A stretch of DNA of 64,000 nt. It comes from a virus (Duplodnaviria > Heunggongvirae > Uroviricota > Caudoviricetes). Both the position numbers and the translations under genes were made by a program. Positions within the stretch are counted from its first letter, which is position 1. The number at the start of each line of letters is the position of its first letter. This document shows positions 11,562-57,544 of this stretch, in pieces. The notes beneath the pieces were generated by a model. It searched no databases. It was not told the DNA's origin and saw only the letters and a program-made list of their open reading frames with translations. Location of the stretch: IMG/VR virus record IMGVR_UViG_3300028992_000036; one strand, 5' to 3'.

Positions 11562-13121
11562 ATGACTGTTCGGATTGTATCTAACGCAGTAAATGCGCTT
11601 ATTTCTGGCGCAGATGACAAGGTAAAGCAACTGGTGCAGCAAATGTTGAGCTACGAAGTCGAGACTGGCGACTGGAAGGGCACAAGCACGATGTTCAACT
11701 GGAGTAAAAACTCGTTCCCTGCTGGCTTTGCCAAGCCTGTAGCGGCGAACTTGAACAAGGCGGGCATCAAATGTGTTCATATCCGCAAAGACAAAGCCCC
11801 GGCGCTTGGTAAACCAAATCCGGCGGTTAACCCATTCCCATACAATCCTGATTATGCGTATCAGGATCAGACTGTGGAAACACTGGTTCGAGAGGGAATG
11901 ATGATTGCGCAGATCGCTACTGGTGGCGGGAAATCTAACGTTGCCTGCAAAGCAGCTGCACGTATCGGTCGAATGACATTATTTTTAACAACCCGCTCTG
12001 TTCTGATGTTTCAAATGGCCGAAAACTTCCAGAGATCCATCGACTACCGCGCCGAAAATGGCGAACCGTGGTTAAAAGACCAAAAGGTTGGAGTCATTGG
12101 CTCGGGTGAGTTCCAGGTATCACGACATATCAACGTCGCTACAGTTCAAACTCTTGCAAGTTTCCTCGAAGAACCACCACGCGATGCAACACCAGATAAG
12201 AAAAGCTACCACCTCAAACGTCGGGAGTTGGTGAAACGCTTCCTTTCAAGTGTCTCTCTTCTTATTCTGGAAGAGGCGCATGAGTCTTCAGGCTCAAATT
12301 TCTATGACATCGCCAGATTATGTGTGAACGCAGACTATCGTCTGGCGCTTACAGCCACGCCGTTCATGAAGGATTCGACGGAAGCCAACATGCGCCTGAT
12401 GGCGGTGGCCGGGCGAATTGAAATTAAAGTCACAGAAAAGTACCTGATTGATCGAGGCATTCTGGCAAAGCCGTACTTCCTTTATCATAAAGTTGCCTAC
12501 AAGCCAGACGAGGCCAGAATCAAGGCCGAACTTGCCAACAAACACCTCAATTTTAGAGTTGGTATGAGCACCGCCTACCAAAAGGCTTATCAGTTGGGGA
12601 TCGTGTATAATTTGGGACGTAACGAGGCCATTGTTCGCGAAGCATTGCTCTATAAGCAACATTCTCTCAATTGTATGACTCTGGTTCGTCTTAAACGCCA
12701 CGGGCAAATCCTGATGGAAATGATGAAAGAGTCCGGCCTTAGAGTTGACTTCATCTATGGGGAATCTAACCAGGCGACAAGGCAAGCAAAGCTGAACAGT
12801 TTAGCGTCTGGAGAAATAGATGTTTTAATAGGCTCGACTATTCTGGATGTCGGTGTTGATGTGCCAAGCGTTGGTGCGGTCATTCTTGCTGGTGGTGGGA
12901 AAGCAGAAGTTGAAATGAGGCAGCGTGTCGGTCGTGGCTTACGAGCCAAAAAAAATCAGGCAAACGTGTGTTTTATCACTGATTTCATTGACATTAGCAA
13001 CAAATACCTGTTGTCTCACTCTTATGAGCGAAAACACATCATCGACACCACACCTGGCTTTGCAGAAGGTGTATTGCCTATTGATGGAGCATTCGATTTT
13101 GGAGTTCTGAAACGAGATTAG
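11562..13121 (+). CDS. superfamily 2 helicase (DEAD/DEAH-type)
   Basis: Motif I IATGGGKSN, motif II LILEEAHE, motif VI QRVGRGLR; AAGGAAAGAGG Shine-Dalgarno; divergent from the ParB/ATPase block. Confidence 0.75.
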   Translation: MTVRIVSNAVNALISGADDKVKQLVQQMLSYEVETGDWKGTSTMFNWSKNSFPAGFAKPVAANLNKAGIKCVHIRKDKAPALGKPNPAVNPFPYNPDYAYQDQTVETLVREGMMIAQIATGGGKSNVACKAAARIGRMTLFLTTRSVLMFQMAENFQRSIDYRAENGEPWLKDQKVGVIGSGEFQVSRHINVATVQTLASFLEEPPRDATPDKKSYHLKRRELVKRFLSSVSLLILEEAHESSGSNFYDIARLCVNADYRLALTATPFMKDSTEANMRLMAVAGRIEIKVTEKYLIDRGILAKPYFLYHKVAYKPDEARIKAELANKHLNFRVGMSTAYQKAYQLGIVYNLGRNEAIVREALLYKQHSLNCMTLVRLKRHGQILMEMMKESGLRVDFIYGESNQATRQAKLNSLASGEIDVLIGSTILDVGVDVPSVGAVILAGGGKAEVEMRQRVGRGLRAKKNQANVCFITDFIDISNKYLLSHSYERKHIIDTTPGFAEGVLPIDGAFDFGVLKRD

Positions 13122-16790: not shown

Positions 16791-17273
16791 TTACACGCCA
16801 TCAAGGATGTGGATGCGGTTGCTTGCGTATACATTCAGCATAAAGTTAGCGCAAAACAGTTTCCATGTATCAACGCCAGCGGTATACGTAATGTTTTTGC
16901 ATTTAATTGCATTGTTGGCGATCCGCATCCCCTGCGATACTGCTTCATCGTCGGAAAATTTGAACGACGATTGAGTTTTAATCCAGACAGAAATCTGCGT
17001 AGCGAACTCAATCAGCTTGGACTGGCAGAATCGCCCGGAGCGCACCGGAAAGACGAACGTTCCGAATCCAGAATTTACCACATATGCTTTCTCAAATACC
17101 CGCGAGTAACGACGATTGCCAATGATGTCGCGTGCAATAATGCATTTTTCTTGTGCTGACAGTTCTACCGTCTCATTGTCGCGCCATGCACCAAGTACTC
17201 GTTTTTCAATGTCAGAGAACGTTACAGCGATATTGCCATGTGCGGGTGCGTTTACAGTAGCGATAAAATTCAT
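16791..17273 (-). CDS. hypothetical protein
   Basis: 160-aa ORF; TAAGGAATTAATC Shine-Dalgarno; upstream AACAAATTGTTTTCT palindrome. Confidence 0.5.
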   Translation of the reverse strand: MNFIATVNAPAHGNIAVTFSDIEKRVLGAWRDNETVELSAQEKCIIARDIIGNRRYSRVFEKAYVVNSGFGTFVFPVRSGRFCQSKLIEFATQISVWIKTQSSFKFSDDEAVSQGMRIANNAIKCKNITYTAGVDTWKLFCANFMLNVYASNRIHILDGV

Positions 17274-17623
17274 GATTAATTCCTTATCGTAAATAACAAA
17301 TTGTTTTCTTGTTGGTGTTAATTATCGTTGTACGAATAAGGCGTCAAAGTGGAAAGTTGCGGTAGCCGGACGGGAACAGGTGGGTTTGTCGGTTGCCTGG
17401 AGGTAAGAGGTTGGTGTTATTAGCCTGAGGGAAACAGGATGGTCATTTAAGACCACCAATGCTGGTGGCCTTAATAATTATCGCCCGATTACGCTAAGGA
17501 TCTTTTCCTCAACTGATTTGTTGTTGCGACTAAACTGCCTTGCGTATCTGATGACAGAAGAGGCGTTTTGCTTTCTGACCATCTCGGCTCTTTCCTTCAG
17601 GCGTTTCTTGAAATCGCCCATAT

Positions 17624-19103: not shown

Positions 19104-19433
19104 TTACTCGAATACTTCAAGAAACTCCTGAACGTCCCAATGCTGGACGAGGTGAAGATAGACCTTAGAAATCACGTCATTTTCGCTATCGCATGTGAAG
19201 TAGTACTTCTGGCTGCGGTTGTATGTGTCCACACAAAATTCGCTCATATCCATAAAGTCAGCATCTTCACCCATGTCGCAAATCATCAAAGCAGGTGCAT
19301 CATCACGAGTCATCAGCTCCAGCACCCATCTTGAATTAATCAGAGTGGAAGACCAACCTTCCAGCTCATAGAACTGGTCAAACTCTTTTTGAGTTAATTT
19401 CTTGATTTGGTTGATGTCGATATTTGCAAACAT
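19104..19433 (-). CDS. hypothetical acidic protein (start curated to MFANIDIN)
   Basis: Internal ATG preceded by TTTAAGGATTG; the first ATG lies inside the upstream palindrome. Confidence 0.45.
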   Translation of the reverse strand: MFANIDINQIKKLTQKEFDQFYELEGWSSTLINSRWVLELMTRDDAPALMICDMGEDADFMDMSEFCVDTYNRSQKYYFTCDSENDVISKVYLHLVQHWDVQEFLEVFE

Positions 19434-19789
19434 AAAGCAATCCTTAAACAACATGTTTTCTTGATGGTGTTATTATCGCAATAACGCACAGGCGAAAAAG
19501 GATTTTATTCCGGTGAATATGGTTTTGGCAGTGAGTTTTCAGGTTCAGTACCGAGTATACTTTTTACATTATTCTGATTTAGTGGCCGAAGGTGGCTGGT
19601 GGGCAGAATAATCCTCTCCCCGAAAACCTACTGAAATCGATTGTGACCCGTTGGCTGTCTGGCACAATTACGCTGTAGCTGGGCATTCAGAGGGAATCCA
19701 GCGGTAAGCAAGTCCGCCTACGTGAGCGCCTCTCTTCTTCCCGCACATTACAGGTGGGTAGCCGCAACTCTCCCTCTCGCTATACCGGT

Positions 19790-19950
19790 ACGCCGCCGTT
19801 CCTGAACCGGCATCGAGCCTTTTCCCGAAATCCACACAGGCAACTCGACCGTTTCCCTGAAAACCTCCAGCCGTTCCCCGAAGGCAACCCAGCCGTTTCT
19901 GTAGCGGGATGCAACCTTTTCCCTGTATGGACCGAAGGCTGACCGTAGGG
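19790..19950. repeat. iteron-like array, 6-7 copies of (A/G)GCCGTTTCCCTGAA at about 22-bp spacing
   Basis: Copies at about 19795, 19818, 19848, 19870, 19892, 19915, 19941; overlapping ORFs have non-protein-like composition. Confidence 0.5.
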
Positions 19951-20995
19951 GTGTTACGGGGGATAAAATCAGGAGTTGAATAAATACGAAAAAGGAGGCG
20001 ACACCCCTCCTTCCCTCCCCACTTATACATACCTGGCTTCTTCGCTATACATGTTGTGTTTTATCTGTCTCAACCTCTCTATAGGCGTTAATGCTCACTC
20101 CTTCCAGAATGTTCTATACGGCAACTATTTCTGTTGGTGAATTGGGTGTGTTGTTCTCTCTGTCGGTGTATGTGGTTTCGTTCGTTTTGCGGTGGTTCTT
20201 CTATGGGGTGTTCTCGTCGTTTTGGTGATTGTTCTTCTCCGTGTATGGAGTAATGGCAGGTGGGCGATTCCTTTCGTTGTTGTGTTTGAGTTGTTTGTCT
20301 GGAGTGTGTGAAAGGCTTTTGCAGTTATTCGTGTATTGGGTAATGGCATTTCCCGTGATTGTTGTGTTTCGTGTCTTTTGGGATTGAGAGAAACCTTGCG
20401 GTTACAGGCTTCGTTGGGGTTTCAGTGATTCTGGTGTTCTTCGCTGTTTGGGGAATGGCGTGTCGTGGGTATCGCGCGTATGAATGTTTTCGGATTGCCT
20501 GTGAAAGTTAGGTTGGTTGTCCGGTAGCCTGGGGAGAAGAGGTGGGTCTTTTCGGTAGCCTGCCATAAAGAGGTTGGTTGTTTTTGGAAATGGCATTTGT
20601 GTTATTTAGTTGTTTTGTTATGCCTGAAAATAAGTTGTTTATATGGTTGTGTAACGCAACGGGAGCGATTTTGAGCGTGTGTTTTTGTTGGTAGTATGTT
20701 GGGTCGTCTGTGGTGAAAATTGGACGCTGTGGCGCTGTCTGCTGCGTAGAGTTACGGGTATAAGCAGTGATGTGTGAAAACGTCAATTTTTTAGACCAAA
20801 TCGGGTGAAAGCGTTGATGTTTCGTTGATCTGTTATTCAGTTGTTTTCTTGATTGTATAAACAACTATAACTTATTGATATTTAAGGATGTGATTGCGGG
20901 TATGGAAGAAGAGTAGTGGCGATCAACGGATTCTTATAGAAAAGAATCAAATTGTGACCGCCATTATCAACTGATTGATTTGTTTACTTGTGTAG

Positions 20996-21394
20996 TCAGT
21001 TCTCGAAATGAATAGGGTCAACGTAATGCCGCTCACCGCTTTTACCATTACACAGCACTGTAACTTTCGCCTTTTCACTCCAGGCTGAGTATAGAAAGTT
21101 CCCATCAGGTTGAACATGGTAACGAGAGAAGTAAACATCGCCGACTGAGGCGTCGAACATGTTCCTATCTTTTTCACTTTGGGCAAGCGAGATGGATATC
21201 ACCGAATTCCCATTTGGGGAAACGATTTTAAATTTATTCCCTATATCCATAACAATATTGTAACCAGGTAATTGCTTGTGTGTTTCCGGATCTATTTTCA
21301 TGCATCGTGGGTACACGATAGTGTTAGGCTCTTCAACTGGCGTGGCATTAGCAGAAAGCACAAAAAATATTAGTGCCAATGGTGCATATTTCAT
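20996..21394 (-). CDS. secreted protein (signal peptide)
   Basis: N-terminal MKYAPLALIFFVLSANA; GTGAGGGAT Shine-Dalgarno; 132 aa. Confidence 0.5.
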   Translation of the reverse strand: MKYAPLALIFFVLSANATPVEEPNTIVYPRCMKIDPETHKQLPGYNIVMDIGNKFKIVSPNGNSVISISLAQSEKDRNMFDASVGDVYFSRYHVQPDGNFLYSAWSEKAKVTVLCNGKSGERHYVDPIHFEN

Positions 21395-21594
21395 TTATCC
21401 CTCACAATTTCCAATTTTCCAGACCATCGTCTATTTCAGCGTCAGGGTGGAATTGTACCGCATCAAATCCTACATCGAGCACCTTTCGAATGTTCTTGAT
21501 GGTTAGACTGGCCCCCTGAATCTCCAGACAACCAGTATCACTTAAATAAGTGATAGTCTTAATACTAGTTTTTAGACTAGTCATTGGAGAACAG

Positions 21595-21960
21595 ATGATT
21601 GATGTCTTAGGGCCGGAGAAACGCAGACGGCGTACCACACAGGAAAAGATCGCAATTGTTCAGCAGAGCTTTGAACCGGGGATGACGGTCTCCCTCGTTG
21701 CCCGGCAACATGGTGTAGCAGCCAGCCAGTTATTTCTCTGGCGTAAGCAATACCAGGAAGGAAGTCTTACTGCTGTCGCCGCCGGAGAACAGGTTGTTCC
21801 TGCCTCTGAACTTGCTGCCGCCATGAAGCAGATTAAAGAACTCCAGCGCCTGCTCGGCAAGAAAACGATGGAAAATGAACTCCTCAAAGAAGCCGTTGAA
21901 TATGGACGGGCAAAAAAGTGGATAGCGCACGCGCCCTTATTGCCCGGGGATGGGGAGTAA
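21595..21960 (+). CDS. insC: IS2 transposase OrfA (InsC-like)
   Basis: Protein begins [56 protein letters not shown], matching recalled IS2 InsC. Confidence 0.8.
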
Positions 21961-22823
21961 GCTTAGTCAGCCGTTGTCTCCGGGTGTCGCGTGCGCAGTT
22001 GCACGTCATTCTCAGACGAACCGATGACTGGATGGATGGCCGCCGCAGTCGTCACACTGATGATACGGATGTGCTTCTCCGTATACACCATGTTATCGGA
22101 GAGCTGCCCACGTATGGTTATCGTCGGGTATGGGCGCTGCTTCGCAGACAGGCAGAACTTGATGGTATGCCTGCGATCAATGCCAAACGTGTTTACCGGA
22201 TCATGCGCCAGAATGCGCTGTTGCTTGAGCGAAAACCTGCTGTACCGCCATCGAAACGGGCACATACAGGCAGAGTGGCCGTGAAAGAAAGCAATCAGCG
22301 ATGGTGCTCTGACGGGTTCGAGTTCTGCTGTGATAACGGAGAGAGACTGCGTGTCACGTTCGCGCTGGACTGCTGTGATCGTGAGGCACTGCACTGGGCG
22401 GTGACTACCGGCGGCTTCAACAGTGAAACAGTACAGGACGTCATGCTGGGAGCGGTGGAACGCCGCTTCGGCAACGATCTTCCGTCGTCTCCAGTGGAAT
22501 GGCTGACGGATAATGGTTCATGCTACCGGGCTAATGAAACACGCCAGTTCGCCCGGATGTTGGGACTTGAACCGAAGAACACGGCGGTGCGGAGTCCGGA
22601 GAGTAACGGAATAGCAGAGAGCTTCGTGAAAACGATAAAGCGTGACTACATCAGTATCATGCCCAAACCAGACGGGTTAACGGCAGCAAAGAACCTTACA
22701 GAGGCGTTCGAGCATTATAACGAATGGCATCCGCATAGTGCGCTGGGTTATCGCTCGCCACGGGAATATCTGCGGCAGCGGGCTTGTAATGGGTTAAGTG
22801 ATAACAGATGTCTGGAAATATAG
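21918..22823 (+). CDS. insD: IS2 transposase OrfB (InsD-like, DDE catalytic domain; normally expressed as OrfAB by -1 frameshift)
   Basis: 301-aa ORF overlapping orfA in -1 frame; integrase-core-like region. Confidence 0.8.
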
Positions 22824-23426: not shown

Positions 23427-25460
23427 TTACTTAACCTGGTGGCCAGGTTTAGCACCAGCATCCGGGCTTAACAGGAAGATATCTTTCCCGCCGGGGCCAG
23501 CAGCCATCACCATGCCTTCAGAGATACCGAAGCGCATTTTACGTGGTGCCAGGTTAGCCACCATAATGGTGTGACGACCAATCAGTGCCTGTGGATCTGG
23601 ATAAGCGGAACGGATGCCTGAGAAGACATTACGCTTTTCACCACCGAGATCCAGCGTCAGGCGAAGCAGTTTGTCAGAACCTTCTACAAACTCTGCGTTT
23701 TCAATCAGCGCCACGCGCAGGTCAACTTTGGCGAAGTCGTCAAAGGTGATAGTTTCCTGAATCGGGTCGTCAGCCAGTGGGCCAGTTACCGGTGCGGCTG
23801 TGGCTTTCACTTCTTCTTTGGATGCTTCCACCAGTGCTTCAACCTGCTTCATATCGATGCGGTTATACAGTGCCTTGAACGGATTCACTTTATGGCCCAG
23901 CAGCGGTTGCTGGATACCATCCCAGGTCAGTTCTGTATTCAGGAATGCTTCTGCACGTTCAGTCAGTTTCGGCAGTACCGGTTTCAGGTACGTCATCAGC
24001 ACGCGGAACAGGTTAATGCCCATAGAGCAAATCGCCTGCAGATCGGCATCGCGTCCTTCCTGCTTTGCCACCACCCACGGAGCCTGTTCATCAACATAGC
24101 GGTTAGCCAGGTCAGCCAGTGCCATGATTTCACGGATAGCTTTGCCAAATTCGCGGCTTTCCCATGCTTCGCCAATCACTTCAGCGGCATCAGTAAAGGT
24201 TTTGTACAGTTGCGGGTCAGCCAGTTCGCTTGCCAGCACGCCGTCAAAACGCTTGTTGATAAAGCCTGCATTACGGGAGGCCAGGTTAACCACTTTGTTA
24301 ACGATATCGGCATTCACACGCTGAACGAAATCTTCCAGGTTGAGATCGATATCATCAATGCGCGAAGAGAGTTTCGCAGTGTAGTAGTAACGCAGGCTGT
24401 CGGCGTCAAAATGATTCAGCCAGGTGCTGGCTTTAATAAAGGTGCCGCGAGACTTGGACATCTTCGCGCCGTTCACCGTCACATAGCCGTGAACAAACAG
24501 GTTGGTCGGCTTGCGGAAGTTGCTGCCTTCCAGCATGGCAGGCCAGAACAGGCTGTGGAAGTAAACGATATCTTTGCCGATGAAGTGGTACAGCTCGGCG
24601 GTGGAGTCTTTCTTCCAGTATTCGTCGAAGCTGGTAGTGTCGCCGCGTTTGTCGCACAGATTCTTGAAGGAACCCATGTAGCCAATCGGCGCGTCCAGCC
24701 AGACGTAGAAGTATTTGCCCGGTGCGTTCGGAATTTCAAAACCGAAGTAAGGTGCGTCACGGGAGATATCCCACTGTTGCAGGCCAGATTCAAACCACTC
24801 CTGCATTTTGTTTGCCACCTGCTCCTGCAACGCACCGCTGCGGGTCCATGCCTGCAACATTTCGCTGAAAGAAGGCAGATCAAAGAAGAAGTGTTCGGAA
24901 TCACGCATTACCGGTGTAGCGCCAGAAACCACTGATTTCGGCTCGATCAGTTCCGTCGGGCTGTATGTCGCGCCGCAGACTTCACAGTTATCGCCGTATT
25001 GATCCGGCGCTTTACATTTCGGGCATGTGCCTTTTACAAAACGGTCCGGCAGGAACATGCCTTTTTCCGGGTCGTACAGCTGAGAGATGGTGCGGTTTTT
25101 AATAAAACCGTTCTCTTTCAGGCGAGTATAGATAAGCTCGGACAACTGACGGTTCTCTTCGCTGTGCGTCGAGTGATAGTTGTCATAGCTGATGTTAAAG
25201 CCTGCGAAATCAGTCTGATGTTCCTGACTCATTTCGCCAATCATCTGTTCCGGTGTGATACCAAGCTGCTGTGCTTTCAGCATGATTGGCGTACCGTGGG
25301 CATCGTCGGCACAGATGAAATTAACCTCGTGGCCGCGCATTCGCTGGTAACGAACCCAGACATCAGCCTGGATGTGCTCCAGCATATGGCCGAGGTGGAT
25401 TGAGCCGTTAGCGTACGGCAGCGCGCACGTCACCAGAATTTTCTTCGCGACTTGGGTCAT
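23427..25460 (-). CDS. metG: methionine--tRNA ligase (start curated to [10 protein letters not shown]; ORF-track N-terminal extension rejected)
   Basis: 677 aa; essentially collinear with E. coli MetG as recalled (class I HLGH motif, KMSKS, C-terminal tRNA-binding domain); hairpin terminator at about 23385-23410. Confidence 0.95.
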
Positions 25461-25617
25461 AGTAGGCATTACTTCTTTGTAGTGAAAAGGGGCTTGATAG
25501 TAACAAAATGGCCTTATGTCTGCCATGTGATAACAGCATTTCTCATAAATGATTAAATGTCGTAGCTGGAGTACACTACAAGGCGACAATTGCGCAAATT
25601 AAAATAAAGGAGACGGG

Positions 25618-26718
25618 ATGAGCGAGTCCAAATCGCCGGATGCCCTGAGAGCAATGGTAGCCGGTACGCTGGCTAATTTTCAGCACCCAACCCTGAAACA
25701 CAACCTGACTACGCTTAAAGCGTTACACCATGTTGCGTTGATGGATGACACACTGCATGTCGAACTAATCATGCCTTTCGTGTGGAATAAGCCTTTTGAA
25801 GACCTGAAAGAGCAATGTAGTGGTGATCTGCTCCGTATCACTGGCGCAAAGGCTATTGACTGGAAGCTGTCGTACAACATTGCCACGCTTAAGCGCGTCA
25901 AAAACCAACCAGGCATTAATGGCGTTAAGAACATTATCGCCGTCAGCTCAGGCAAGGGCGGCGTGGGTAAATCCTCCACGGCGGTAAACCTGGCACTGGC
26001 GTTGGCTGCTGAAGGTGCGAAAGTTGGTATTTTGGATGCCGATATCTATGGTCCATCAATTCCAACCATGCTGGGCGCGGAAAACCAACGTCCAACCTCA
26101 CCGGACGGTACTCACATGGCACCTATCATGTCTCATGGCCTGGCAACCAACTCTATTGGTTATCTGGTCACCGACGACAATGCAATGGTGTGGCGTGGAC
26201 CGATGGCCAGCAAGGCGCTGATGCAGATGTTGCAGGAAACACTGTGGCCTGATCTGGACTATCTCGTTCTCGATATGCCACCGGGCACTGGTGATATTCA
26301 ATTGACGCTGGCGCAGAACATTCCTGTAACTGGTGCGGTTGTGGTAACTACGCCGCAAGACATCGCGCTGATCGATGCGAAGAAAGGCATTGTGATGTTC
26401 GAAAAAGTCGAAGTGCCGGTACTGGGTATCGTTGAAAACATGAGTGTGCATATTTGCAGTAACTGCGGTCATCACGAGCCAATTTTTGGCACCGGTGGCG
26501 CACAGAAACTGGCCGAGAAATACAACACGCAGTTGTTAGGCCAAATGCCACTTCATATCTCTCTTCGTGAAGATCTGGATAACGGAACACCAACCGTTAT
26601 TAGTCGTCCAGATAGTGAATTTACGGCTATTTATCGTGACCTCGCAGATCGCGTTGCTGCCCAAATGTATTGGCAAGGTGAAGTAATACCTGGCGAAATC
26701 GCATTCCGCGCAGTGTGA
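25618..26718 (+). CDS. mrp: Fe-S cluster carrier ATPase Mrp/ApbC
   Basis: P-loop [11 protein letters not shown], Mrp signature and CxxC motif; near-identical to E. coli Mrp as recalled; divergent from metG as in the E. coli chromosome. Confidence 0.9.
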
Positions 26719-32213: not shown

Positions 32214-32804
32214 CTATTTATTATAAACAAAACCAATATCTTTCTTGTGAGGCATATCTGCTGCTGAAAAAGCTGCGATCTTCGCGAGTCGATCACATAT
32301 TTCATTTTCACGATGCCCGGCGTGACCTTTAACCCACTTCCAGCGAACATTATGTCGACTTGCGGCCTCATCCAGACGCTTCCACAGATCAACATTCTTT
32401 ACCGGTTTTTTGTCAGAAGTCATCCATCCATTGCGTTTCCACCATTTCATCCACTGTGTCATGCCGTTTTTCAGATACTGGCTATCAGAGTGCAAAATAA
32501 CGTTGCATGGATATTTCAAACGCTCCAGCCCGATAAGTGCCCCCATCATCTCCATGCGGTTATTGGTGGTGCTATGAAAACCATCTGAGAACTCGCGTTC
32601 CTCACCACGATACTGGAGAACGATACCGTAACCGCCCGGGCCACCCGGATTTTTAAGGCAAGAGCCATCACTAAAGATTTTCACGGTTTTAAGCTGGGGA
32701 TTGAACTCTACGACAGGCGTTGTGGGATTGGTGCGGGGGGAATTTTTGTTTTTGGCTTTTTTGCGAGTTTTTGCTTGCGATCGGGCTGGTGTCTTCGTCG
32801 TCAT
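32214..32804 (-). CDS. rnhA: ribonuclease HI with about 40-aa basic N-terminal extension (start curated to MTTKTPARS)
   Basis: Core [24 protein letters not shown]...[11 protein letters not shown]...HSDSQY...[10 protein letters not shown]...[15 protein letters not shown] closely parallels E. coli RNase HI; CAGGAG Shine-Dalgarno. Confidence 0.85.
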
Positions 32805-33386
32805 ATAAACTCCTGAATCAAGCGCCGCGCCGATTTTTCCTCGCGCGTGCGCACACGCGTGCGTGTTAATAATTATTAAAATAAACAAATTACTTCCCAG
32901 AACAGGTTTTTATAAACCTGAACTGAACGAACGAAGTGAGTGAAGTTCACCTCGAACGAAGTGAGAGGTTGTCTTTTCAGGTAATACTCTCCCAGGGAGG
33001 TGAGTATAAAAATCTCTCACCAACCTGGTCGTTTCATAACCTGAAAAGTTATGGTCTAAGTCTACTGCCAGCTTAGACTTGGGAAGTTATGGATGACAGC
33101 ACCCCAGAACCGAGATCTTCCCACACTTTATGAAGGGGAGTACTGGATTCAACCTCTCGAAACACCCCAGACTCGACAATCATAAAGTGACCCTTGTCTC
33201 TGCTCACTTTGGTTCCCCCTTCCCCGACACCTAAACGGCACCAGTTCTACGCTGGTAGTGAGCTTTTTTAAACCTGACGCCAGTGACGCTTACCCCCACC
33301 CATCAGGTCGAGTCTCCAGTCTACGACTGGAAACTATCAGATCTTAGCACTTACAATTCACTTTATGAATAGTTTGTACTTATCTA

Positions 33387-44565: not shown

Positions 44566-45309
44566 TTACCATGTTCCCCATAGAGGGTTTTCCAATAATC
44601 TCGCCTCCAACGAATTGGCTACTATTGCCGTTTGCAACGTTGGTTGGGGATAGTTTGCAAAGTCTGAATACTCATTTTCCTGCGTGACACGTTTATCTAC
44701 GGCATGTTTAACGCCACTTGCTATGAAATGACGCATGATGCCCAACAGCCTCCGACTGTCTGCACTATCGTTTGCTAAAACATGAGGGAGCTGAAGTTCG
44801 ATTTCTACCATTTCTCCATACTTACCAACAAACTGTAGTTTGTCCGCACTGTACTTTTTATCCCTCCTTTGGATAAGGAAACCAGTAAAAGCATCACCTG
44901 GCGATGCCAAACTATCCACCCGCTTATTGGCAAGTCGAATAAGGTTCGTGAAAGCCATACAGTGATGCGCACCCATTCCCCCAAAGAACCCTTCGCTATT
45001 AATGTTAAGATCTTCAGTTTCATGGGATGCAATAAACCCAGGCCCGACGTTGGGAAGATATCCCCCCTCAACAAAAGGATTAATCAGGATCGGCGCAATA
45101 CATCCAGGTGGTAGTGATTTCAAACTTTGCATCAATGGTGTCTCGGATATTAGACCAAGCAACGCGGCGAATTGTACTCCGTCAATATTGTTGCTGCCCC
45201 ATAGAATACGTGGAGCCGCACCATTGGAAGTATGCCCATTGATCAGTTTTATCGACTGCATCACTGCAAATACCTGCAAAAACTGCGAGCGGCTTAATTT
45301 AAACGACAT
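44566..45309 (-). CDS. hypothetical protein
   Basis: 247-aa ORF between the SbcC-like and RuvC-like genes. Confidence 0.4.
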   Translation of the reverse strand: MSFKLSRSQFLQVFAVMQSIKLINGHTSNGAAPRILWGSNNIDGVQFAALLGLISETPLMQSLKSLPPGCIAPILINPFVEGGYLPNVGPGFIASHETEDLNINSEGFFGGMGAHHCMAFTNLIRLANKRVDSLASPGDAFTGFLIQRRDKKYSADKLQFVGKYGEMVEIELQLPHVLANDSADSRRLLGIMRHFIASGVKHAVDKRVTQENEYSDFANYPQPTLQTAIVANSLEARLLENPLWGTW

Positions 45310-47215
45310 AGCTGCGCCCCTCTTTAACTTCCAGCGTAATAGTTTCCCGGAACCATGACTTCATCTCTTTATGGGAGATAATCAGCACAGTACCTCGCTC
45401 GCGAGCTTTGGACTCCAGAATACCCATGAGGCGTTCAAGACCGGCTGTATCGAGTGCATCGTCAATTTCGTCGCCGATAAACAAATCGATGTTTTTACTC
45501 GCCCGGTTACTAACCAGATCCTGCAATGCCAAAGAACACGCAATGCGAACCTTCCGCTTCTCACCACCAGAGAGGGTTTGGAACGACTTACTTGAACCTT
45601 TCTTCTGCACACTAATGTTGAATTTGTCGCGATACTCACCTTTTTTAGTGACATCCATCGTCGACCACTCAGCAGTAATATTCCCGTCAGACAACGTATT
45701 GAGATACTCGGCAGTGCGTGTATTCAGGAAAGGCGTAACAGACGTCAAAATATGAGAACGCACCCCGGCAGGAGAGTAGACCTGACGAGCTTTTTCCAAT
45801 AGCAACGTTTGTTCCTGAATAGCCTTCAACTCATCTTTTAAGGACTTGAAGGTAGACTTACTGGATACCAGGTTATCTTCGTGTCTGGCGATAAGAGCAA
45901 TAAACGGATTAATCTCTTTTGATATACGATCGACCTCAGTACGAGCACGAGTCACAAGAGACTCAATAGCAACAACCTCCTTCTCACGATGACGCAAAGA
46001 TGAGAGTTGTTTCGTAAGCTCTTCAATCCGGGCAATGATAGCCGTTACATCAGGTGTCGTTTTAACAAGGGCAGACTCAATGCTTAACGCTTTCTCAAGA
46101 TTCGTTTTGTGTTTAGCCATTGCCTCTGCAAGTGTCTTCGCCTGACCAATTTCCTGACGTGCTTGTTCAATGAAATTCTCCTTCACCGTTGATAGATCTT
46201 CTTCGCAGTAGGCTTTGCCACAAGTAGGGCATGGTGATCCCACTTTAGTACCAACCTCTTCTGCTTTGGTCTTAAAATTACGCGCGCGGCTCATTGCATC
46301 AGCCTGACTATTTTCTGTAGCTTTGATGCTTGCCCGAATATCAGTTATCGCACCACGAACTTTGAGCAACTTGGCGTCATGTTCTTCTTTTGAGGCTAAC
46401 TTTTTGCGCTCACTTTCGATTGCCTTCTCGGTATCACGGATCTGTTCGGGAAGAGTGCGGATCTCAAGTTCAACTTCCGTTAACTCAACTTCGGCACTGG
46501 CCAGCCCAGCCAGGGCATCGTCATAACGTTTAGAACGCTCTTGCTCCCATGATTCAGAGGAGGCTTTCGCTGACTCAATTTCTGACTGTGTTGCCTCAAT
46601 GGTCGAGATTGTCGACTCCAATTTGGTTTTAACCACATCCATACGTGCGGCAGCTGCATTAGCTCGCTCACGAGCAATAGCGTAGGCGCGTGTCAGTCTG
46701 TCAACGCCAGCGGCTTCTTCTACGATGGTTTTGAGGTTTTTGTCGGACATTCCAGGTAAATCTGGCATAGCTTCTTGGCTCGCATAGATGGAAGCCATGA
46801 AAACCTCTTTAGATGCACCGATCAGACGCTCGACGAACTCTTGCGTCAGCGCATCTTTGCCTTTCGTCATATCGCCGTCTTCACCACGAACGATAAGCCG
46901 ATTTTTGAACTCTTTGTGTTTACGGTGACGAATGATCGCATATCTCTTGCCTTCATCCTCGATGGTTACTGCAACACGACAGTTCTTTTCATGGTCGGTA
47001 GACAACACATCGTCCCCCTTCACACCATGAGCTGTTTCGCCATAAAGACACCACATCAGGCTATTCATTAGCGTTGACTTTCCAGAGCCATTACTTGATG
47101 CGGAACTATCATCACTATTAACACCCTGAATGAGCACTAAACCACGCTGATCTAACTCGACCTCCGCGCTGGCGATAGCCATAAAATTCTCAACCTGGAG
47201 CTTTAAAAACTTCAT
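45299..47215 (-). CDS. SbcC/Rad50-like ATPase
   Basis: Walker A GSGKST, long coiled coil with CPTCG zinc hook, signature LSGGEKRK, Walker B LFIGDEIDDALD. Confidence 0.8.
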   Translation of the reverse strand: MKFLKLQVENFMAIASAEVELDQRGLVLIQGVNSDDSSASSNGSGKSTLMNSLMWCLYGETAHGVKGDDVLSTDHEKNCRVAVTIEDEGKRYAIIRHRKHKEFKNRLIVRGEDGDMTKGKDALTQEFVERLIGASKEVFMASIYASQEAMPDLPGMSDKNLKTIVEEAAGVDRLTRAYAIARERANAAAARMDVVKTKLESTISTIEATQSEIESAKASSESWEQERSKRYDDALAGLASAEVELTEVELEIRTLPEQIRDTEKAIESERKKLASKEEHDAKLLKVRGAITDIRASIKATENSQADAMSRARNFKTKAEEVGTKVGSPCPTCGKAYCEEDLSTVKENFIEQARQEIGQAKTLAEAMAKHKTNLEKALSIESALVKTTPDVTAIIARIEELTKQLSSLRHREKEVVAIESLVTRARTEVDRISKEINPFIALIARHEDNLVSSKSTFKSLKDELKAIQEQTLLLEKARQVYSPAGVRSHILTSVTPFLNTRTAEYLNTLSDGNITAEWSTMDVTKKGEYRDKFNISVQKKGSSKSFQTLSGGEKRKVRIACSLALQDLVSNRASKNIDLFIGDEIDDALDTAGLERLMGILESKARERGTVLIISHKEMKSWFRETITLEVKEGRSYVV

Positions 47216-47444
47216 ATAACACCTTTGATACCGTGTGTTAGCTTTTGACCTTCTTTCAATCTGAACTCCGTATGCGCCGGGAAGGATCTGCGCCTCAATA
47301 CGCCTTTTCTGGTTAACCTTCCAAGATAAAACGCTACGGGATTTCCTTGTGGCGGGTAGGGCTTGTGAAACATCACCGTCTGGCCTCGTTCAAGTCTTTT
47401 CATCGTGATGGCAAAGTCTCGAAAGCTCCCATAACGACTTTGCC

Positions 47445-48530
47445 TCACACAGCCTCCGAACTCTCCGCTTCGGTGAGGATTTCCTGACACAAAATATCCA
47501 ACTTGCTCAGATCAAATCCGCCGTCAGTATCGTGGACAATCTTGCAATAAGCAGATACCGACTCTCCCAGGCTATCGATTTTGCTGGTTTCCGTTGTGCT
47601 TGCTGTCCCTTCCATCATTGATGACTTACGGATGAAGTTGCACACGACACCTTTTGCACCCATTGTTTTGAGGATGTTCTGGTACTTAATGCCTTCTTCA
47701 TCGTTCTCAATTACGGCGCGGAAACGCACGTAGTTGCCGCGAATTTGGTCATCGGCAACATAATCTTCCAGGTTAATGAATTTAGGCGCACTGGTTTCGT
47801 AGTGACTGAAACTGCCGTCCGGGTTTACGATCATGTAACCAGCCAGAGATCCAACATCTCCCCAATTTTGATGGGTCAGCGCACCGACACTGATAACTCC
47901 AGGAATGACCTCTTTGTGGTTGTGGTAATGCCCACTAAGCACGAGACGAAAGCCGATATCCTTTAACTCCTGCGCATCGATACCGACGTCAGGCATTGTT
48001 GGAATGGCTTTGTTAATGGATGTATGGATAACAACGTCATGGTTATCACCTTCTACGCTCTTACGTAATGCTTTCAGATCGCTGATAAGCTCCGCATGAT
48101 TGTTACGCCAGCTAATCAGGTGGACAGTCACATCACCAATTTTTATTGAGTGTGGGCGCTTGCCACATACGATTACCACGCCGATAGAACTCAGCGATGC
48201 TGCTGCGTTGGCGCTATATACTGAATCGTTGGTTTCAAGATCGTGATTACCGGCCAGCATTACTACTGTCAGATCAAGCTCGTTGATAATCCACTTGTAC
48301 GTTTCAGTTACGTAATGCAAAACAGAAGGGGACACAGTTCCTCGGACGTGAAATGTATCACCGGCAACCAACATGTACTTACAACCGGCCTTCTTCATGG
48401 CGATGGCTGCTTCTTTCGTTGCTTCCAACTGTATTTCAAGTCTGGAGTTAAGCCCCTCTGCGTTCGTCGTGGAGAACGCATCCCATTTGTGGTAGTGGCA
48501 GTCAGAAATGACGCCGTATGGCAAAGTCAT
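47445..48530 (-). CDS. SbcD/Mre11-like nuclease
   Basis: Calcineurin-like phosphoesterase motifs DCHYH, AGDTFH, GNHD. Confidence 0.8.
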   Translation of the reverse strand: MTLPYGVISDCHYHKWDAFSTTNAEGLNSRLEIQLEATKEAAIAMKKAGCKYMLVAGDTFHVRGTVSPSVLHYVTETYKWIINELDLTVVMLAGNHDLETNDSVYSANAAASLSSIGVVIVCGKRPHSIKIGDVTVHLISWRNNHAELISDLKALRKSVEGDNHDVVIHTSINKAIPTMPDVGIDAQELKDIGFRLVLSGHYHNHKEVIPGVISVGALTHQNWGDVGSLAGYMIVNPDGSFSHYETSAPKFINLEDYVADDQIRGNYVRFRAVIENDEEGIKYQNILKTMGAKGVVCNFIRKSSMMEGTASTTETSKIDSLGESVSAYCKIVHDTDGGFDLSKLDILCQEILTEAESSEAV

Positions 48531-49605: not shown

Positions 49606-49628
49606 GACTGGTCTGAAGTCATGTTCAT

Positions 49629-49730
49629 GTATGCTGTCAGCGGTAATTGATAGTCTGTCAGCGGTTCACCGTATGCTGCCAACTGTTTTTGGTATTCTGT
49701 CAGCGGCAAATCAAGTATGCTGTCAGCGGT
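49629..49730 (+). repeat. origin iterons: 5 copies of (G)TATGCTGTCAGCGGT at 22-bp spacing
   Basis: Direct repeats at about 49629, 49651, 49671 (degenerate), 49693, 49715, ending 20 bp before the repA ATG. Confidence 0.75.
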
Positions 49731-49750
49731 TGAATGACAAAGGTGTCCAC

Positions 49751-50845
49751 ATGTCCACAAAAAATAAAAAAGGTAAAAATAACAAAGAAGTAGAAGATAA
49801 CATCGACAACTTTGAAGAAGGTTCCCTTGAATTGTACACAGGGGAACTTGTCCCTAATAGCAACAATACAGTCCAACCAATTGCGTTGATGCGACTGGGG
49901 TTGTTCGTCCCCACGCTTAAGGGAACAAAATACAGTAAACGTAACAAGCCAAATGAGATCGATGCTTCAAAGGAGCTTGTCCAGCTCGAAGTAGCCCGTT
50001 CTGAAGGCTATTCCGATATCAAGATAACCGGTCCTCGTCTCGACATGGATCATGATTTCAAAACGTGGGTGGGCGTTGTGCGTTCGCTGGCAGAATACGG
50101 CGAACCTAACGGTCGTGTCGAGTTAAGCATCACGAAATTTGCGAAGTTTTGTGGCTATCCATCGTCACAGATCCGCAAAACACTCCGCGACCGGCTTACA
50201 AACAGTCTTTTGAAGATCATGCGTACAACTCTGTCTTTCCAGAGAACGTATGAAGAAAAGAACGTCGACGGCTCTAACAAGATCTCGCTTCTGATGGTGC
50301 ACCTCATCAATAGCGTGGACTACAACGAGCAGAAAGATACGGTGGTGTTCTATGCAGAACCGAAGCTGGCCGAACTATATCGCTTTGACCATAAGGTTCT
50401 TTTGCAGTTAAAGGTTATCAATAAGCTACCACGCAAAGAAACAGCACAGGCTCTGTACACCTTCATCGAAAGTCTTCCAACCAAGCCTGCGCCGGTATCG
50501 CTTGCTCGATTGCGTGCGCGACTCAATTTGAGTAGCAGGAATGTCAGCTCGCAGAATCAGACTATACGTAACGGCTTAAAAGCTCTCCAAGATTTGGGCT
50601 ATCTCGAATACAGCGAGATTAAGCGTGGGCGGTCGATCTATATCCAGATTCACAGCCGCAATCCAAAACTCAAAGTCGCACCGCCAAAACCTGAAGACAT
50701 CGAACCCAAAAAACCAGATGAGAAAGCCGGGGAAATTGATGCCAAACAGAACATTATCAATAAGATAACCGAACTTTCGCAGAATTTGACGCCTGAAAAT
50801 ATCAAGATGATTGAGATCCTTTCCAATAGTCTCAAACTGCTTTGA
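49751..50845 (+). CDS. repA: plasmid replication initiator RepA-like (iteron-binding); start curated to MSTKNKKGK
   Basis: 364-aa basic protein flanked on both sides by arrays of the same 16-bp iteron; architecture of P1/F-type theta replicons. Confidence 0.7.
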   Translation: MSTKNKKGKNNKEVEDNIDNFEEGSLELYTGELVPNSNNTVQPIALMRLGLFVPTLKGTKYSKRNKPNEIDASKELVQLEVARSEGYSDIKITGPRLDMDHDFKTWVGVVRSLAEYGEPNGRVELSITKFAKFCGYPSSQIRKTLRDRLTNSLLKIMRTTLSFQRTYEEKNVDGSNKISLLMVHLINSVDYNEQKDTVVFYAEPKLAELYRFDHKVLLQLKVINKLPRKETAQALYTFIESLPTKPAPVSLARLRARLNLSSRNVSSQNQTIRNGLKALQDLGYLEYSEIKRGRSIYIQIHSRNPKLKVAPPKPEDIEPKKPDEKAGEIDAKQNIINKITELSQNLTPENIKMIEILSNSLKLL

Positions 50846-51377
50846 TATGCTGTCAGCGGTGAAATGTATGCTATCAGCGGCTATTTTTCTGAAAAGTATG
50901 CTGTGAACGGTTAAAGATATGCTACCAGCGGTATAGTGAGATGAACGTATGCTGTGAGCGGTAAATCATCTATCACCACTCAATGCTCTGCCATACCTCC
51001 CCAGTGGTTACTAACCTCGAAGAGTGCATTCCATATAGGTTTGCGCTCACTAACATTCTATTGCTATTGCGCTGATTGCTTGTAGTGAAAGGCATTTGTT
51101 GCCTGCTACTCCCTGATAGAATGTATGCTGTCAGCGGTGTTTTATTGAGGAATTTTTGTTTGGATATGCTATCAGCGGTAATTAATGGTATATGTCAGAC
51201 CTTCGTATGCTGCCAGCGGTAATTTTGTTCTGGTTATACCCATACCGGGACACATTATTCATGCAATGTCTTAAGTATGCTGTCAGCGGTAAAAAATCGA
51301 GTAAAGTATGCTGTGAGCGGTGAGATAGACTCTCGATATGCTATCAGCGGTAGTTGATTGTGTATGCTGTCAGCGGT
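50846..51377 (+). repeat. downstream iteron arrays (incA-like copy-control region): about 12 copies of GTATGCTGTCAGCGGT in two clusters
   Basis: Copies at about 50846, 50866, 50896, 50917, 50947 and 51123, 51164, 51204, 51274, 51305, 51335, 51362. Confidence 0.75.
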
Positions 51378-51424
51378 GACGACTATGAAATATGACTGCG
51401 GAACGTGCCGCAGTCAGTTTGCAT

Positions 51425-52619: not shown

Positions 52620-53339
<720 letters not shown>

Positions 53340-53346
<7 letters not shown>

Positions 53347-56300: not shown

Positions 56301-56357
56301 AGCCAGACATTTCTCAATGGCCGACTCTAATGCTTGTTCATTGGTTTGACTGACCAT
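53340..56357 (-). CDS. hsdR: Type I restriction enzyme R subunit
   Basis: 1005 aa; N-terminal PD-(D/E)xK ([17 protein letters not shown]), SF2 helicase Walker [10 protein letters not shown] and DEAH (VIIDEAHSS); last gene of M-S-X-R operon. Confidence 0.9.
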
Positions 56358-56371
56358 AATTGTAAGTTCCC

Positions 56372-57535
56372 TTAATCAAAATTCTTCTGTTTCATTGCCT
56401 CAGCCGCTTTTTGCAGCGGTCCTTTTAAGGCTTTTTCTAACTTTGTCATCTGCTCTAAGTGCCACGCAACCGCTTGGGGCCAAGTCTCTTTGTTAAACCC
56501 GTCAGCTTTGGTCGAAAACTGGATACGGCAAGATTTCTTCTCATCCAGCCTCATCCACTCAAGTTCTGCACCAAAAGTATGCTCAATGTCTTGTTTGGAC
56601 TGACTCAACAAATCAAAAAGGTATTTATTCTCTTCGGTAACCCCACGGCTGATCCAAAGCTCTACTCGAAGCTCTTTTTGCAGAAATATCAGGTTATACG
56701 GACATCCACTTAGCCCTGAGCCTGCTGATAACCAATGATCTTTGCTTGGGCTAATGTTGTTATAGAGTTGGCAAGAGCTTTTCTGAAACGCCTCTAAGGC
56801 ACGCTCCCAGTACTCGCGACGCACGGTATGGCGGTTTTTTAGTACCACTTCGGTGGTTTTTTCTTCCGCTTCCTTGGCATTAATGCCGATCATCAACTCT
56901 TTCGCTTCTGGCGTTGGAATGATCTGGTCAATATTAATCAGTAGCTGTTCACCCAGTGAATAAGGCGTGATTTTGAAGCAGGCAATGCTAATGCCTTGAC
57001 CCAATAACCACAGCGCGGTGCTGGTCACTTCTTTGCGAAAGTTTGCCGCAACTAACATAATGCGCTGGCTGTTACCCAGGTTGAGCTTTAACTCATCGAG
57101 ATCGGGCGCATCCAAAAACTCACATATTCTAGCAGAGGCACTTGCAGGGGTATTAAACAAGTCAACCTCTCCTGTTACAGGCTCATAGCGGTCTAAGTAC
57201 TGCTGGTAAATTTCAACGATTTGCGCTTTGGTTAAACTTGCGCAGTAGGAGGCATATTTAAGCGCCTGCCACACCACATCGCGGCCACTGTCGTCCAGCT
57301 TGTTTTCAATAATGACCAAGTTGCCATCTTTATCCAGTGCCAGTAAATCTAAGCGTTCACGGGTGTCATCAAAGCCATCGAACTCTTTTTGAATAATCAG
57401 CAGCTCTTCACCCAGTGCGGAAGGCTCGTGTGCCAACCATTCCTGAAGATTTTTGCGCTCAGTAAAGCCCAACTCACTGAATCTCTTCGTCTTAACCGGA
57501 CTAATCCTGTTGGTCTGATGATTTACCGTGAACAT
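56372..57535 (-). CDS. RM-embedded protein of unknown function; N-terminal PD-(D/E)xK nuclease-like motif (NucS/DUF91-like) plus uncharacterised C-terminal domain
   Basis: 387 aa, tightly packed between hsdS (9-bp gap) and hsdR (14-bp gap); motif ERLDLLALDKDGNLVIIENKLD...VWQALKYASY; no Walker A/B. Confidence 0.6.
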   Translation of the reverse strand: MFTVNHQTNRISPVKTKRFSELGFTERKNLQEWLAHEPSALGEELLIIQKEFDGFDDTRERLDLLALDKDGNLVIIENKLDDSGRDVVWQALKYASYCASLTKAQIVEIYQQYLDRYEPVTGEVDLFNTPASASARICEFLDAPDLDELKLNLGNSQRIMLVAANFRKEVTSTALWLLGQGISIACFKITPYSLGEQLLINIDQIIPTPEAKELMIGINAKEAEEKTTEVVLKNRHTVRREYWERALEAFQKSSCQLYNNISPSKDHWLSAGSGLSGCPYNLIFLQKELRVELWISRGVTEENKYLFDLLSQSKQDIEHTFGAELEWMRLDEKKSCRIQFSTKADGFNKETWPQAVAWHLEQMTKLEKALKGPLQKAAEAMKQKNFD

Positions 57536-57544
57536 ATTCGCTTC

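Follow-up and report, generated by a model that had tools for sequence, protein, structure and literature searches.

Introduction

Rho-dependent terminators, among them lambda tR1 and the long untranslated leaders of rho and mgtA, are marked by an unbroken C>G bubble and low G content, by richness in CA, AAC, ACA and CAC, and by RNA that is neither folded nor translated; an upstream stem-loop could protect the 3' end of such RNA once it is trimmed. Here we describe a non-coding tract that shares these properties, in a 64,000-nucleotide (nt) stretch of Caudoviricetes DNA (IMG/VR record IMGVR_UViG_3300028992_000036), which we call the window. The tract differs from the described terminators in being some ten times longer, in having a constrained sequence with oriented repeats, in showing no excess of regularly spaced YC dimers, and in forming a fixed module of a mobile-element family. 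It is best explained as the spacer at the centre of a conserved cis-acting control region that has several parts and spans ~1.5 kb (19455-20995), a region best understood in turn as placed between a variable accessory-gene slot and a repressor-controlled early-gene block. Within that frame, we tentatively read the tract, from its sequence features, as a cis-acting, untranslated Rho-loading barrier in a leftward transcript.

Other described systems resemble the locus in part. Transcription-activated, R-loop and iteron origins (oriLambda, T4 oriF/oriG and ColE1 RNA II; P1 oriR, F and RK2) have counterparts here in direct repeats spaced by 22 bp, an untranslated transcript, a repressor-controlled promoter facing the repeats, and a phage-encoded RNase HI with a T4-like recombination set, whereas the region lacks an AT-rich unwinding element, DnaA boxes, a known initiator and a favourable core hybrid. 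The sponge RNAs CrcZ of Pseudomonas and CsrB/RsmZ likewise present a short motif four to six times in A/C-rich, poorly folding RNA, but the motif of the tract is UGCCAUUAC rather than GGA or AAnAAnAA, and its RNA is not detectably abundant. The RfaH ops element offers a 10-nt match and, like the tract, a setting in horizontally acquired DNA within a long stretch that does not code; here, however, all local transcription uses the other strand, G1 and G2 are missing from the match, its first copy is unconserved and no operon lies downstream. The P1-like oriR-repA-incA of this plasmid lies elsewhere, with iterons (GTATGCTGTCAGCGGT) unrelated to the region, and the dispersed GAAAACAANTTGTTTA sites of the window recall the scattered C1 operators of P1. 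A literature search found no paper describing the element.

Results

A one-strand base composition is maintained by selection

By its sequence, the window is an SSU5/pHCM2-type phage-plasmid of Escherichia coli. Composition was measured in 400-nt intervals across the 64 kb. G+T on the plus strand peaks at 0.745 in the interval starting at 20151, against a mean of 0.500 (standard deviation (sd) 0.037) for the window, a departure of ~6.7 sd; all intervals with G+T above 0.66 fall within 20001-20900, the only such outlier in 64 kb. GC skew in the tract is +0.44 to +0.46 and AT skew -0.33 to -0.50, and the plus strand over 20100-20720 comprises 14.7% A, 12.7% C, 32.2% G and 40.4% T. The first-pass annotation had placed a G+T-skewed region of ~800 bp at 20100-20900, quoted the string GGTGGTTCTTCTATGGGGTGTTCTCGTCGTTTTGGTG as an example and called the asymmetry unusual. 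The string is present at ~20191-20227, the skew is confirmed, and the coordinates are essentially right, with strong skew running from ~20075-20105 to ~20720-20790 and weaker skew continuing to ~21000.

The composition has outlasted much of the sequence. G+T is 0.65-0.74 in all homologs despite identity down to 67%, and the commonest substitution class within the tract is G<->T. Between clades, the tract diverges by 0.15-0.39, as compared with 0.56-0.78 at fourfold sites of neighbouring genes and 0.28-0.54 over those genes overall; it evolves at about half the rate of the fourfold sites, and the sequence itself is therefore constrained. In a distant Klebsiella phage-plasmid (L130) of another replicon type, whose flanking protein has only 33% identity, the syntenic position is taken up by ~900 nt in which C+A makes up 0.60-0.68 of the gene-sense strand; only short patches of sequence are common to it and the window. 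The tract is kept across a whole phage-plasmid family of gut bacteria.

As a test of mutation, we examined rare derived variants within three clades, grouping bases as keto (K) or amino (M). K>M variants outnumber M>K variants (96 to 48), the per-site rates being 0.21 and 0.27, and G>A and C>T occur at much the same rate per site, leaving no sign of strand-biased mutation. Mutation alone would settle at ~56% G+T, as opposed to the 72% present. These rates disfavour a mutational origin of the skew and indicate that it is maintained by selection; with both conservation and selection behind it, the asymmetry has biological meaning. That selection acts on the composition of a single strand argues for a function as single-stranded nucleic acid.

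The tract is neither translated nor folded

Several overlapping frames stand equally open across the tract because stop codons are rare at such a composition. Substitutions among the E. coli, SSU5 and Klebsiella clades nevertheless show no three-base periodicity in any ungapped block, homologs differ by indels of 1, 2, 8 and 23 nt, start codons are not conserved, and two overlapping frames appear equally 'conserved'. On the grounds of the absent periodicity, the unconserved starts and the indel lengths, which are not multiples of three, a protein-coding gene was rejected on either strand. A local period-3 signal in the composition of 20041-20400 falls on degenerate 12/36-nt repeats, which account for it, and other periodicities, including a regular 12-nt spacing of C, were not robust. 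The region is thus non-coding, as first supposed: the minus-strand open reading frames (ORFs), of low complexity and rich in T, R, K and P, have frames that are not conserved and are not genes, and the alternative of a translated basic protein finds no coding signal on either strand.

A long structured non-coding RNA, which the first-pass annotation had also raised, did not survive examination. A scan of the tract against Rfam gave no match at the gathering score nor at E<=1, fold z-scores against shuffles were not significant (-1.3 minus sense, +0.4 plus sense), and the comparison across homologs that had been proposed as a check on covariation revealed no conserved consensus structure over 20100-20520 on either strand. 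On these results, a structured RNA was rejected. What distinguishes the minus sense is its inability to fold: its folding energy lies between -0.12 and -0.15 kcal/mol/nt, the window averaging -0.276 (sd 0.036), and the four least-structured intervals of the 64 kb are the tract in minus sense, whereas the plus sense is ordinary. Within 641 nt, the minus sense holds only three AUG triplets and two Shine-Dalgarno-like cores. A CsrA sponge was rejected on GGA counts (5 against 6.0 expected) and an Hfq sponge on ARN repeats, which are at shuffle level; GcvB-complementary sites seen by eye in the window are not conserved in the alignment, and readings of the motifs as Ter, KOPS, sigma-54 or Chi-like sites, also made by eye, gave no match or an unconserved one.

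The gene-sense strand has the descriptors of Rho-dependent termination

Between 16.8 and 48.5 kb nearly all genes lie on the minus strand and are read leftward. With such neighbours, RNA polymerase therefore sees ~0.7 kb of RNA that is untranslated, unfoldable, rich in A+C and poor in G, the minus-sense composition of the tract being 40% A, 32% C, 13% G and 14% U. In this sense, a C>G bubble extends over 20075-21033; at 959 nt it is the longest on either strand (next 529 nt, median 80 nt). A C/G ratio of at least 1.8 is unbroken over 20111-20790 (~680 nt), as compared with 190 nt for the runner-up run. AAC, ACA, CAC and CA are enriched two- to fourfold, and GG, GGT and TGG are depleted. A C>G bubble criterion and sequence features of this type serve as descriptors of Rho-dependent termination (PMC6144790), and the dinucleotide and trinucleotide biases of the tract agree with the predictors given there. 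Two properties looked for in a Rho utilization (rut) site are thus present, namely a C>G bubble that continues unbroken along the non-template strand as transcription proceeds, and a transcript that is largely unstructured and untranslated.

Published RNA-seq of lysogens of the related phage Cyrano, comprising ten samples (PMC9928086), provides a measure of expression. The Cyrano annotation puts two ORFs, CYRAN_103 and CYRAN_104, in the gap that holds the tract. CYRAN_103, inside the tract, has a log2(FPKM+5) of 2.32 in LB, equal to zero fragments per kilobase per million (FPKM), and at most 4.3 in all ten samples, whereas CYRAN_102, just upstream of the tract, reaches 9.2 and downstream early genes reach 7-8 (PMC9928086). 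RNA drops ~270-fold from CYRAN_102 to CYRAN_103 (PMC9928086), and CYRAN_103 stays at or below an FPKM of ~14 even with neighbouring early genes at ~100-150 (PMC9928086). The tract is silent in these lysogen data, the strand-specificity of the counts not being stated. In the same data set, the hypothetical gene CYRAN_43 (OV696614.1 40268-40822), which lies beside the integrase and outside the window, is by far the highest-expressed locus of the Cyrano phage-plasmid, at ~720 times prophage background. The chromosome-type cargo genes metG (methionyl-tRNA synthetase) and apbC/mrp occupy 23427-26718 of the window, and the Cyrano apbC homolog is expressed in the lysogen at ~9 times background.

Oriented repeats lie within the core

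Copies of GGTAATGGC with at most one mismatch occur four times on the plus strand within 20249-20594, against 0.10 expected, and none of 1000 dinucleotide shuffles of the tract reaches four. The oriented GTAATGGC(R) repeats number four in the core of the window and five or six elsewhere, and the TGCCAT(T) core of the motif persists in the distant relative. The first-pass annotation had listed repeats of TAATGGCA at four positions; the plus-strand copies at 20251 and 20341 are exact, whereas variants, GAATGGCG and AAATGGCA, take its place near 20453 and 20588. Its observation that CGGTAGCCTG occurs twice is exact (20522-20531 and 20553-20562). These two copies head the units of a 31-bp tandem repeat, which, apart from one weak 14-mer, was all that a tandem-repeat finder returned; the first copy reads TCTGTAGCCTG in most homologs. 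The 31-bp module is present in 116 IMG/VR viral stretches. A second pair (CGGTAGCCGG..., CGGTTGCCTG...AAGAGGTTGGT) lies at 17360-17399 of the window, in a 190-nt minus-sense C>G run just upstream of the -35 element of the promoter of gene 16791-17273; at the equivalent place, SSU5 has one module copy adjoining the divergent 'repressor-like' gene SSU5_116. The oriented repeats, UGCCAUUAC four to six times together with the 31-nt tandem module, suggest that a sequence-specific factor may also bind the tract, candidate binding sequences in the region being UGCCAUUAC, GGTAGCCTG-AAGAGGTGGGT and the iteron-like repeats. Invariant inverted GTATAAG boxes (CCCACTTATAC, GGGTATAAG), at 20022-20028 on the minus strand and 20758-20764 on the plus strand, bracket the core at a distance of ~730 bp.

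Conserved elements flank the core in a fixed order

Read from right to left, the intergenic region consists of the long right-hand hairpin, a block of (C)GTTGAY and promoter-like sites, operator copies, the core, the left hairpin, the iteron-like repeats, a Chi site at 19595 and the promoter of the next gene (Table 1). The conserved structure at both ends of the tract is better on the minus sense. The right-hand hairpin has a z-score of -4.9 in minus sense and -2.1 in plus sense, and its loop is retained on a different stem in the distant relative. In the left hairpin, 10 of 10 pairs are kept among homologs, two of them with compensatory changes, and G:U pairs form only on the minus sense. The right-hand block holds five (C)GTTGAY sites in all, in both orientations, and a second promoter-like site, TTGATA-16-GATTCT, found like the first in 10 of the 11 representatives. 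In the distant relative, repeats analogous to the iteron-like array are spaced at exactly 22 bp.

Table 1. Coordinates of the core and of the elements within and around it.
Feature	Coordinates	Strand	Basis or remark
G+T-skewed core, C+A-rich and G-poor on the gene-sense strand, non-coding	20075..20790	-	strongest 20105-20720; composition, foldability, no codon periodicity
Repeat R1, TTCTCCGTGTATGGAGTAATGGCAGGTG, best-conserved copy of the GTAATGGC(R) motif; minus-sense YGCCAUUAC	20235..20262	+	nearly invariant in 11 representatives
Repeat copy TTATTCGTGTATTGGGTAATGGCA	20325..20348	+	repeat search
Variant repeat copy TTTGGGGAATGGCG	20445..20460	+	repeat search, alignment
Tandem 31-bp module, two copies, CGGTAGCCTG-N6-AAGAGGT(G/T)GGT	20522..20583	+	repeat search, alignment
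Variant repeat copy TGTTTTTGGAAATGGCATTT	20579..20598	+	repeat search
Palindrome GTTGTTTTG-N8-GAAAATAAGTTGTTTA, right arm one GAAAACAANTTGTTTA operator copy	20609..20641	.	alifold z = -14.8 minus sense
Promoter-like site TTGACG-18-TATACC, leftward into core	20757..20786	-	10/11 representatives
Regulatory block: (C)GTTGAY in both orientations (20781-20788, 20812-20818, 20823-20829), operator-flank motif TTGTTTTCTTGATTG (20841-20855)	20781..20855	.	alignment
Long hairpin, outer stem UGGCGGUCA/UGAUCGCCA, inner stem, loop with UUUCUAUAAG	20917..20963	-	conserved; just past the stop codon of the upstream gene
Hairpin at left end of core	19989..20015	-	conserved; U tract, terminator-like in this window, U tract not always present in homologs
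Iteron-like array, six direct (A)GCC(G/T)TT(T/C)CC(C)TG copies	19790..19940	.	~21-23 bp spacing, one 33-bp gap; G-rich minus sense
Early promoter and operator of gene 19104-19433, GATAAT-aaca-CCATCAAGAAAACATGTTGTTTA	19445..19477	-	sequence motif search

The operator within the tract, of which a full copy stands at 20626-20641, belongs to a dispersed palindromic family. GAAAACAANTTGTTTA occurs at ~13 sites between 8148 and 41537 of the window (19 matches against 0.37 expected; examples are 17293, 18960, 19445, 23278, 29860, 30574 and 41522), in most cases occupying positions +1 to +20 of the sigma-70-like promoters (TTGACn-16/17-GATAAT) that immediately precede leftward genes. From this placement, the sites look like the regulon of one phage repressor.

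The region is a standing part of SSU5/pHCM2-type phage-plasmids

Matches to the 1.1 kb around the tract are found in 243 of 5,426 complete E. coli genomes, all on plasmids of ~105-115 kb, and in 839 plasmids of PLSDB, spread over at least six genera (Klebsiella, Escherichia, Enterobacter, Salmonella, Citrobacter, Cronobacter and others). Identity is ~95% in the phages Cyrano, CMS-2020a and PhiR41_1, ~72% in Klebsiella phage-plasmids and 67.5% in SSU5. In the best-matching record, the tract sits inside a 1.56-kb annotation-free gap flanked by two leftward hypothetical genes, and an equivalent gap is present in every homolog retrieved; among ~60 homologs, none has the core inverted. Fragments of the right-hand block on large Klebsiella plasmids proved to be remnants flanked by insertion sequences and were uninformative.

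Yersinia pMT1 retains the IncFIB replicon and the flanking gene and has lost the skewed element. In this plasmid of Yersinia pestis (NC_004838.1 3871-18347), SbcCD/RuvC-like genes are joined to the phrog_1641 homolog via IS1541, the nucleotide-metabolism genes and the cargo slot having gone together with the element. Since the replicon persists, the element is dispensable for plasmid maintenance.

Discussion

The tract most probably gives rise to an unfolded RNA, rich in C and A, by which transcription beside the early genes is halted or regulated. As for the mechanism, the reading that we tentatively favour, a Rho-loading barrier, draws on several points: the properties under selection (C>G bias, richness in A and C, and the lack of G-rich motifs, structure and translation signals) are descriptors of Rho-dependent termination, oriented as local transcription runs; variable accessory genes expressed in the lysogen precede the tract and repressed early genes follow it; RNA is lost steeply at the tract; conserved minus-sense structure stands at both of its ends; and pMT1, deprived of the intervening lytic and metabolic genes, is without the element too. 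On this model, the nascent leftward RNA would constitute a very long Rho-loading zone, in which transcription leaving the accessory genes, or leaking from the promoter-like sites of the right-hand block, would be terminated. The terminated RNA would be trimmed back to the conserved hairpin at 20917-20963, such that transcription would not reach the hairpin/terminator (20015-19989), the iteron-like array or the early promoter at ~19470. A bound factor could render the barrier conditional during lytic growth. The involvement of Rho, the insulating role and the binding of a factor are what we infer from these observations.

Several findings weigh against such a barrier. A rut site requires composition only, yet the sequence of the tract is constrained (0.15-0.39 versus 0.56-0.78) and its conserved oriented repeats are left unexplained by the Rho model. 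At 0.7-0.9 kb, the tract has about ten times the usual length of a rut site. Chains of six YC dimers at 9-13 nt spacing are absent from the window's copy, and the 2-9 chains of its homologs (up to ~12 per kb) do not exceed those of dinucleotide shuffles; most C residues are preceded by A, not by a pyrimidine. RNA is close to zero already within ~130 nt past the upstream stop codon, ahead of the core, and the core may therefore be unneeded for that termination, unless the RNA has been trimmed back; the counts themselves come with no statement of strand-specificity (PMC9928086). Finally, the neighbouring iteron-like array with its 22-bp spacing suggests a different or a further role.

That array is the starting point for the main alternative, that the tract forms part of a second, lytic replication origin at which a phage initiator binds the 22-bp-spaced repeats. 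Operator-controlled leftward transcription through the unstructured tract would activate or prime initiation, in the manner of oriLambda or by an R-loop as at T4 oriF/oriG and ColE1, and the structure-free displaced strand would be used for helicase loading. Such an origin, which we regard as rather unlikely, is kept alive by what the Rho model leaves unexplained (the sequence constraint, the oriented repeats, the tenfold length, the want of a YC-dimer excess and the array) together with the T4-like genes and RNase HI. Six direct repeats spaced by ~21-23 bp stand 150 bp left of the tract, with analogues at exactly 22 bp in the distant relative; many conserved blocks hold their order over deep divergence, and constraint of this kind suits arrays of protein-binding sites. 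Promoter-like sites and operators of the early-gene repressor are at hand, the lysogen does not express the element, pMT1, a non-phage derivative, lacks it, and the phage encodes UvsY, a gp32-like SSB, RecA/UvsX, SbcCD, RuvC, Pol III alpha, a DEAD helicase and RNase HI. Nowhere in the window is the minus-sense RNA:DNA hybrid more favourable than over the iteron region (-0.123 kcal/mol/nt, z ~-3). In the core, however, hybrid energetics are unremarkable, the hybrid-minus-duplex energy being +0.05 to +0.08 kcal/mol/nt in plus sense and ~-0.05 in minus sense, within ~1-2 sd of the window means. The region has neither DnaA boxes nor Dam clusters (GATC occurs just twice), and a conserved AT-rich unwinding element is lacking; no initiator gene was identified, the neighbouring proteins being without Pfam matches; 0.7 kb far exceeds any known unwinding element; and a hairpin, terminator-like in this window, separates the tract from the iterons. 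Other origin types gain no support. An R-loop formed by a G-rich plus-sense transcript is unfavoured by nearest-neighbour energies and has no conserved plus-strand promoter, and the RepA origin/incA of the Rep3/IncFIB replicon is ~30 kb away (repA, 49631-50845), with iterons unrelated in sequence to the tract motifs. Rolling-circle origins and single-strand initiation sites, both of which the first-pass annotation had considered, are hairpin-based elements, whereas the core is almost without self-complementarity and no Rep/HUH initiator was seen among the annotated genes. A possible, though doubtful, extension of both the barrier and the origin models is that the tract represents a new kind of cis element selected for the inability of one strand to fold, or else a Rho barrier that a phage factor switches off. 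As a cis element, a 0.7-0.9 kb unstructured landing strip with oriented UGCCAUUAC sites might couple repressor-controlled transcription to initiation at the iterons; it could then supply the lytic origin that SSU5-type phage-plasmids have been missing, with nascent RNA priming or opening it before the T4-like UvsX/UvsY/gp32/RNase H set takes over.

Selection on a single strand could also reflect an RNA acting in trans. A discrete lytic-cycle non-coding RNA of ~760 nt, starting at ~20750 and ending at ~19989, might serve as an unfolded scaffold or sponge displaying four to six UGCCAUUAC motifs to a protein or RNA partner: a hairpin/terminator lies downstream of a conserved -35/-10-like site and no ORF intervenes, the oriented motif recurs in a context selected to remain single-stranded, and its TGCCAT(T) core is retained in the distant relative. 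We consider this RNA improbable, as its 5' part (CYRAN_103) stays at the low level reported above even when neighbouring early genes are expressed, the -10 element of the promoter is poor (TATACC), the GGA (CsrA) and ARN (Hfq) motifs are not enriched, and no partner is known. It is more improbable still that the tract acts as single-stranded DNA, the G+T-rich plus strand being laid bare as a 3' tail once the right-hand block is broken and forming a preferred, structure-free RecA/UvsX-UvsY-gp32 substrate that starts recombination-dependent replication. RecA-family recombinases favour GT-rich single-stranded DNA, the T4-like recombination gene set and the selection on the composition of one strand agree with such a role, and Chi is enriched in the window (13 exact GCTGGTGG sites against 1.4 expected from shuffles), one site lying at 19595; but no nuclease site was identified, the polarity relative to the nearby Chi yields no synergy, the minus-sense hairpins and operator sites go unexplained, and the reading is wholly inferential. 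If the skew had no function, it would be a side effect of strand-biased mutation, such as deamination on an exposed strand, or of ancient duplications of a unit rich in G+T, and the degenerate internal repeats of 12, 31 and 36 nt together with unit-sized indels do suggest growth by duplication. With near-equal per-site rates for K>M and M>K and C>T equal to G>A, however, current mutation would erode the skew, which persists both across clades with saturated synonymous sites and in the distant relative, in a tract that evolves more slowly than fourfold sites; this explanation is very improbable. Least credible is transcription of the plus strand, with CGGTAGCCTG acting as an RfaH ops in a G/U-rich leader or with small hydrophobic peptides as the product. 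CGGTAGCCTG agrees with positions 3-12 of the ops sequence, GGCGGTAGnnTG, G+T-rich codons leave open frames of 45-57 hydrophobic codons, and a local period-3 signal is present at 20041-20400. Against this, neither copy fits ops at one mismatch or fewer (two mismatches, G1 and G2; no such match in the region, and those elsewhere at chance level), the first copy is TCTGTAGCCTG in most homologs, and the strand is opposite to the local genes, with no plus-strand gene downstream and no conserved plus-strand promoter upstream; the coding tests described above, from the missing substitution periodicity and unconserved starts to the two equally 'conserved' frames and the indels of 1, 2, 8 and 23 nt, speak against peptides.

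SSU5/pHCM2-type phage-plasmids are common and carry resistance and virulence cargo, and their lysis-lysogeny control and lytic replication are essentially unmapped. The 1.5-kb unannotated region is among their most conserved non-coding features and marks the exact boundary at which lysogeny-expressed cargo gives way to the genes of the early lytic phase. Should the region be an insulator, that would account for the expression of cargo genes while the phage stays dormant; should it be a lytic origin or a switchable barrier, it would be the place to seek copy-number bursts and the control of induction. The tract is in addition a clear example of purifying selection on the base composition of one strand, beyond sequence alone.

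Other features of the window

The plasmid replicon is P1-like. About five iterons (GTATGCTGTCAGCGGT) and GATC-containing repeats lie at 49609-49735, upstream of repA (Rep3_N), and ~11 further iterons follow repA in an incA-like array at 50845-51382. T4-like recombination and replication genes occupy 32214-32888, 45299-48530 and 62022-63095 (46.7-68 kb in Cyrano), giving a temperate phage-plasmid a set that comprises RecA/UvsX, UvsY, a gp32-like SSB, SbcCD, RuvC, Pol III alpha and epsilon, ligase and RNase HI; the DEAD helicase gene is at 11562-13121. The density of Chi sites (for example 12888, 16747, 17461, 19595, 37998 and 43755) resembles that of the E. coli chromosome, and the distant relative has a Chi at the equivalent place, ~4933. 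Two overlapping plus-strand ORFs at 21550-22823, presumably the transposase genes of IS2 (IS3 family), lie between a 132-amino-acid gene and a DUF1380 gene; the near-identical plasmid pM160133_p3 does not have this insertion. A complete type I restriction-modification system (hsdR, DUF4268, hsdS, hsdM) spans 53340-61339, with 37 masked N just before it at 53112-53148.

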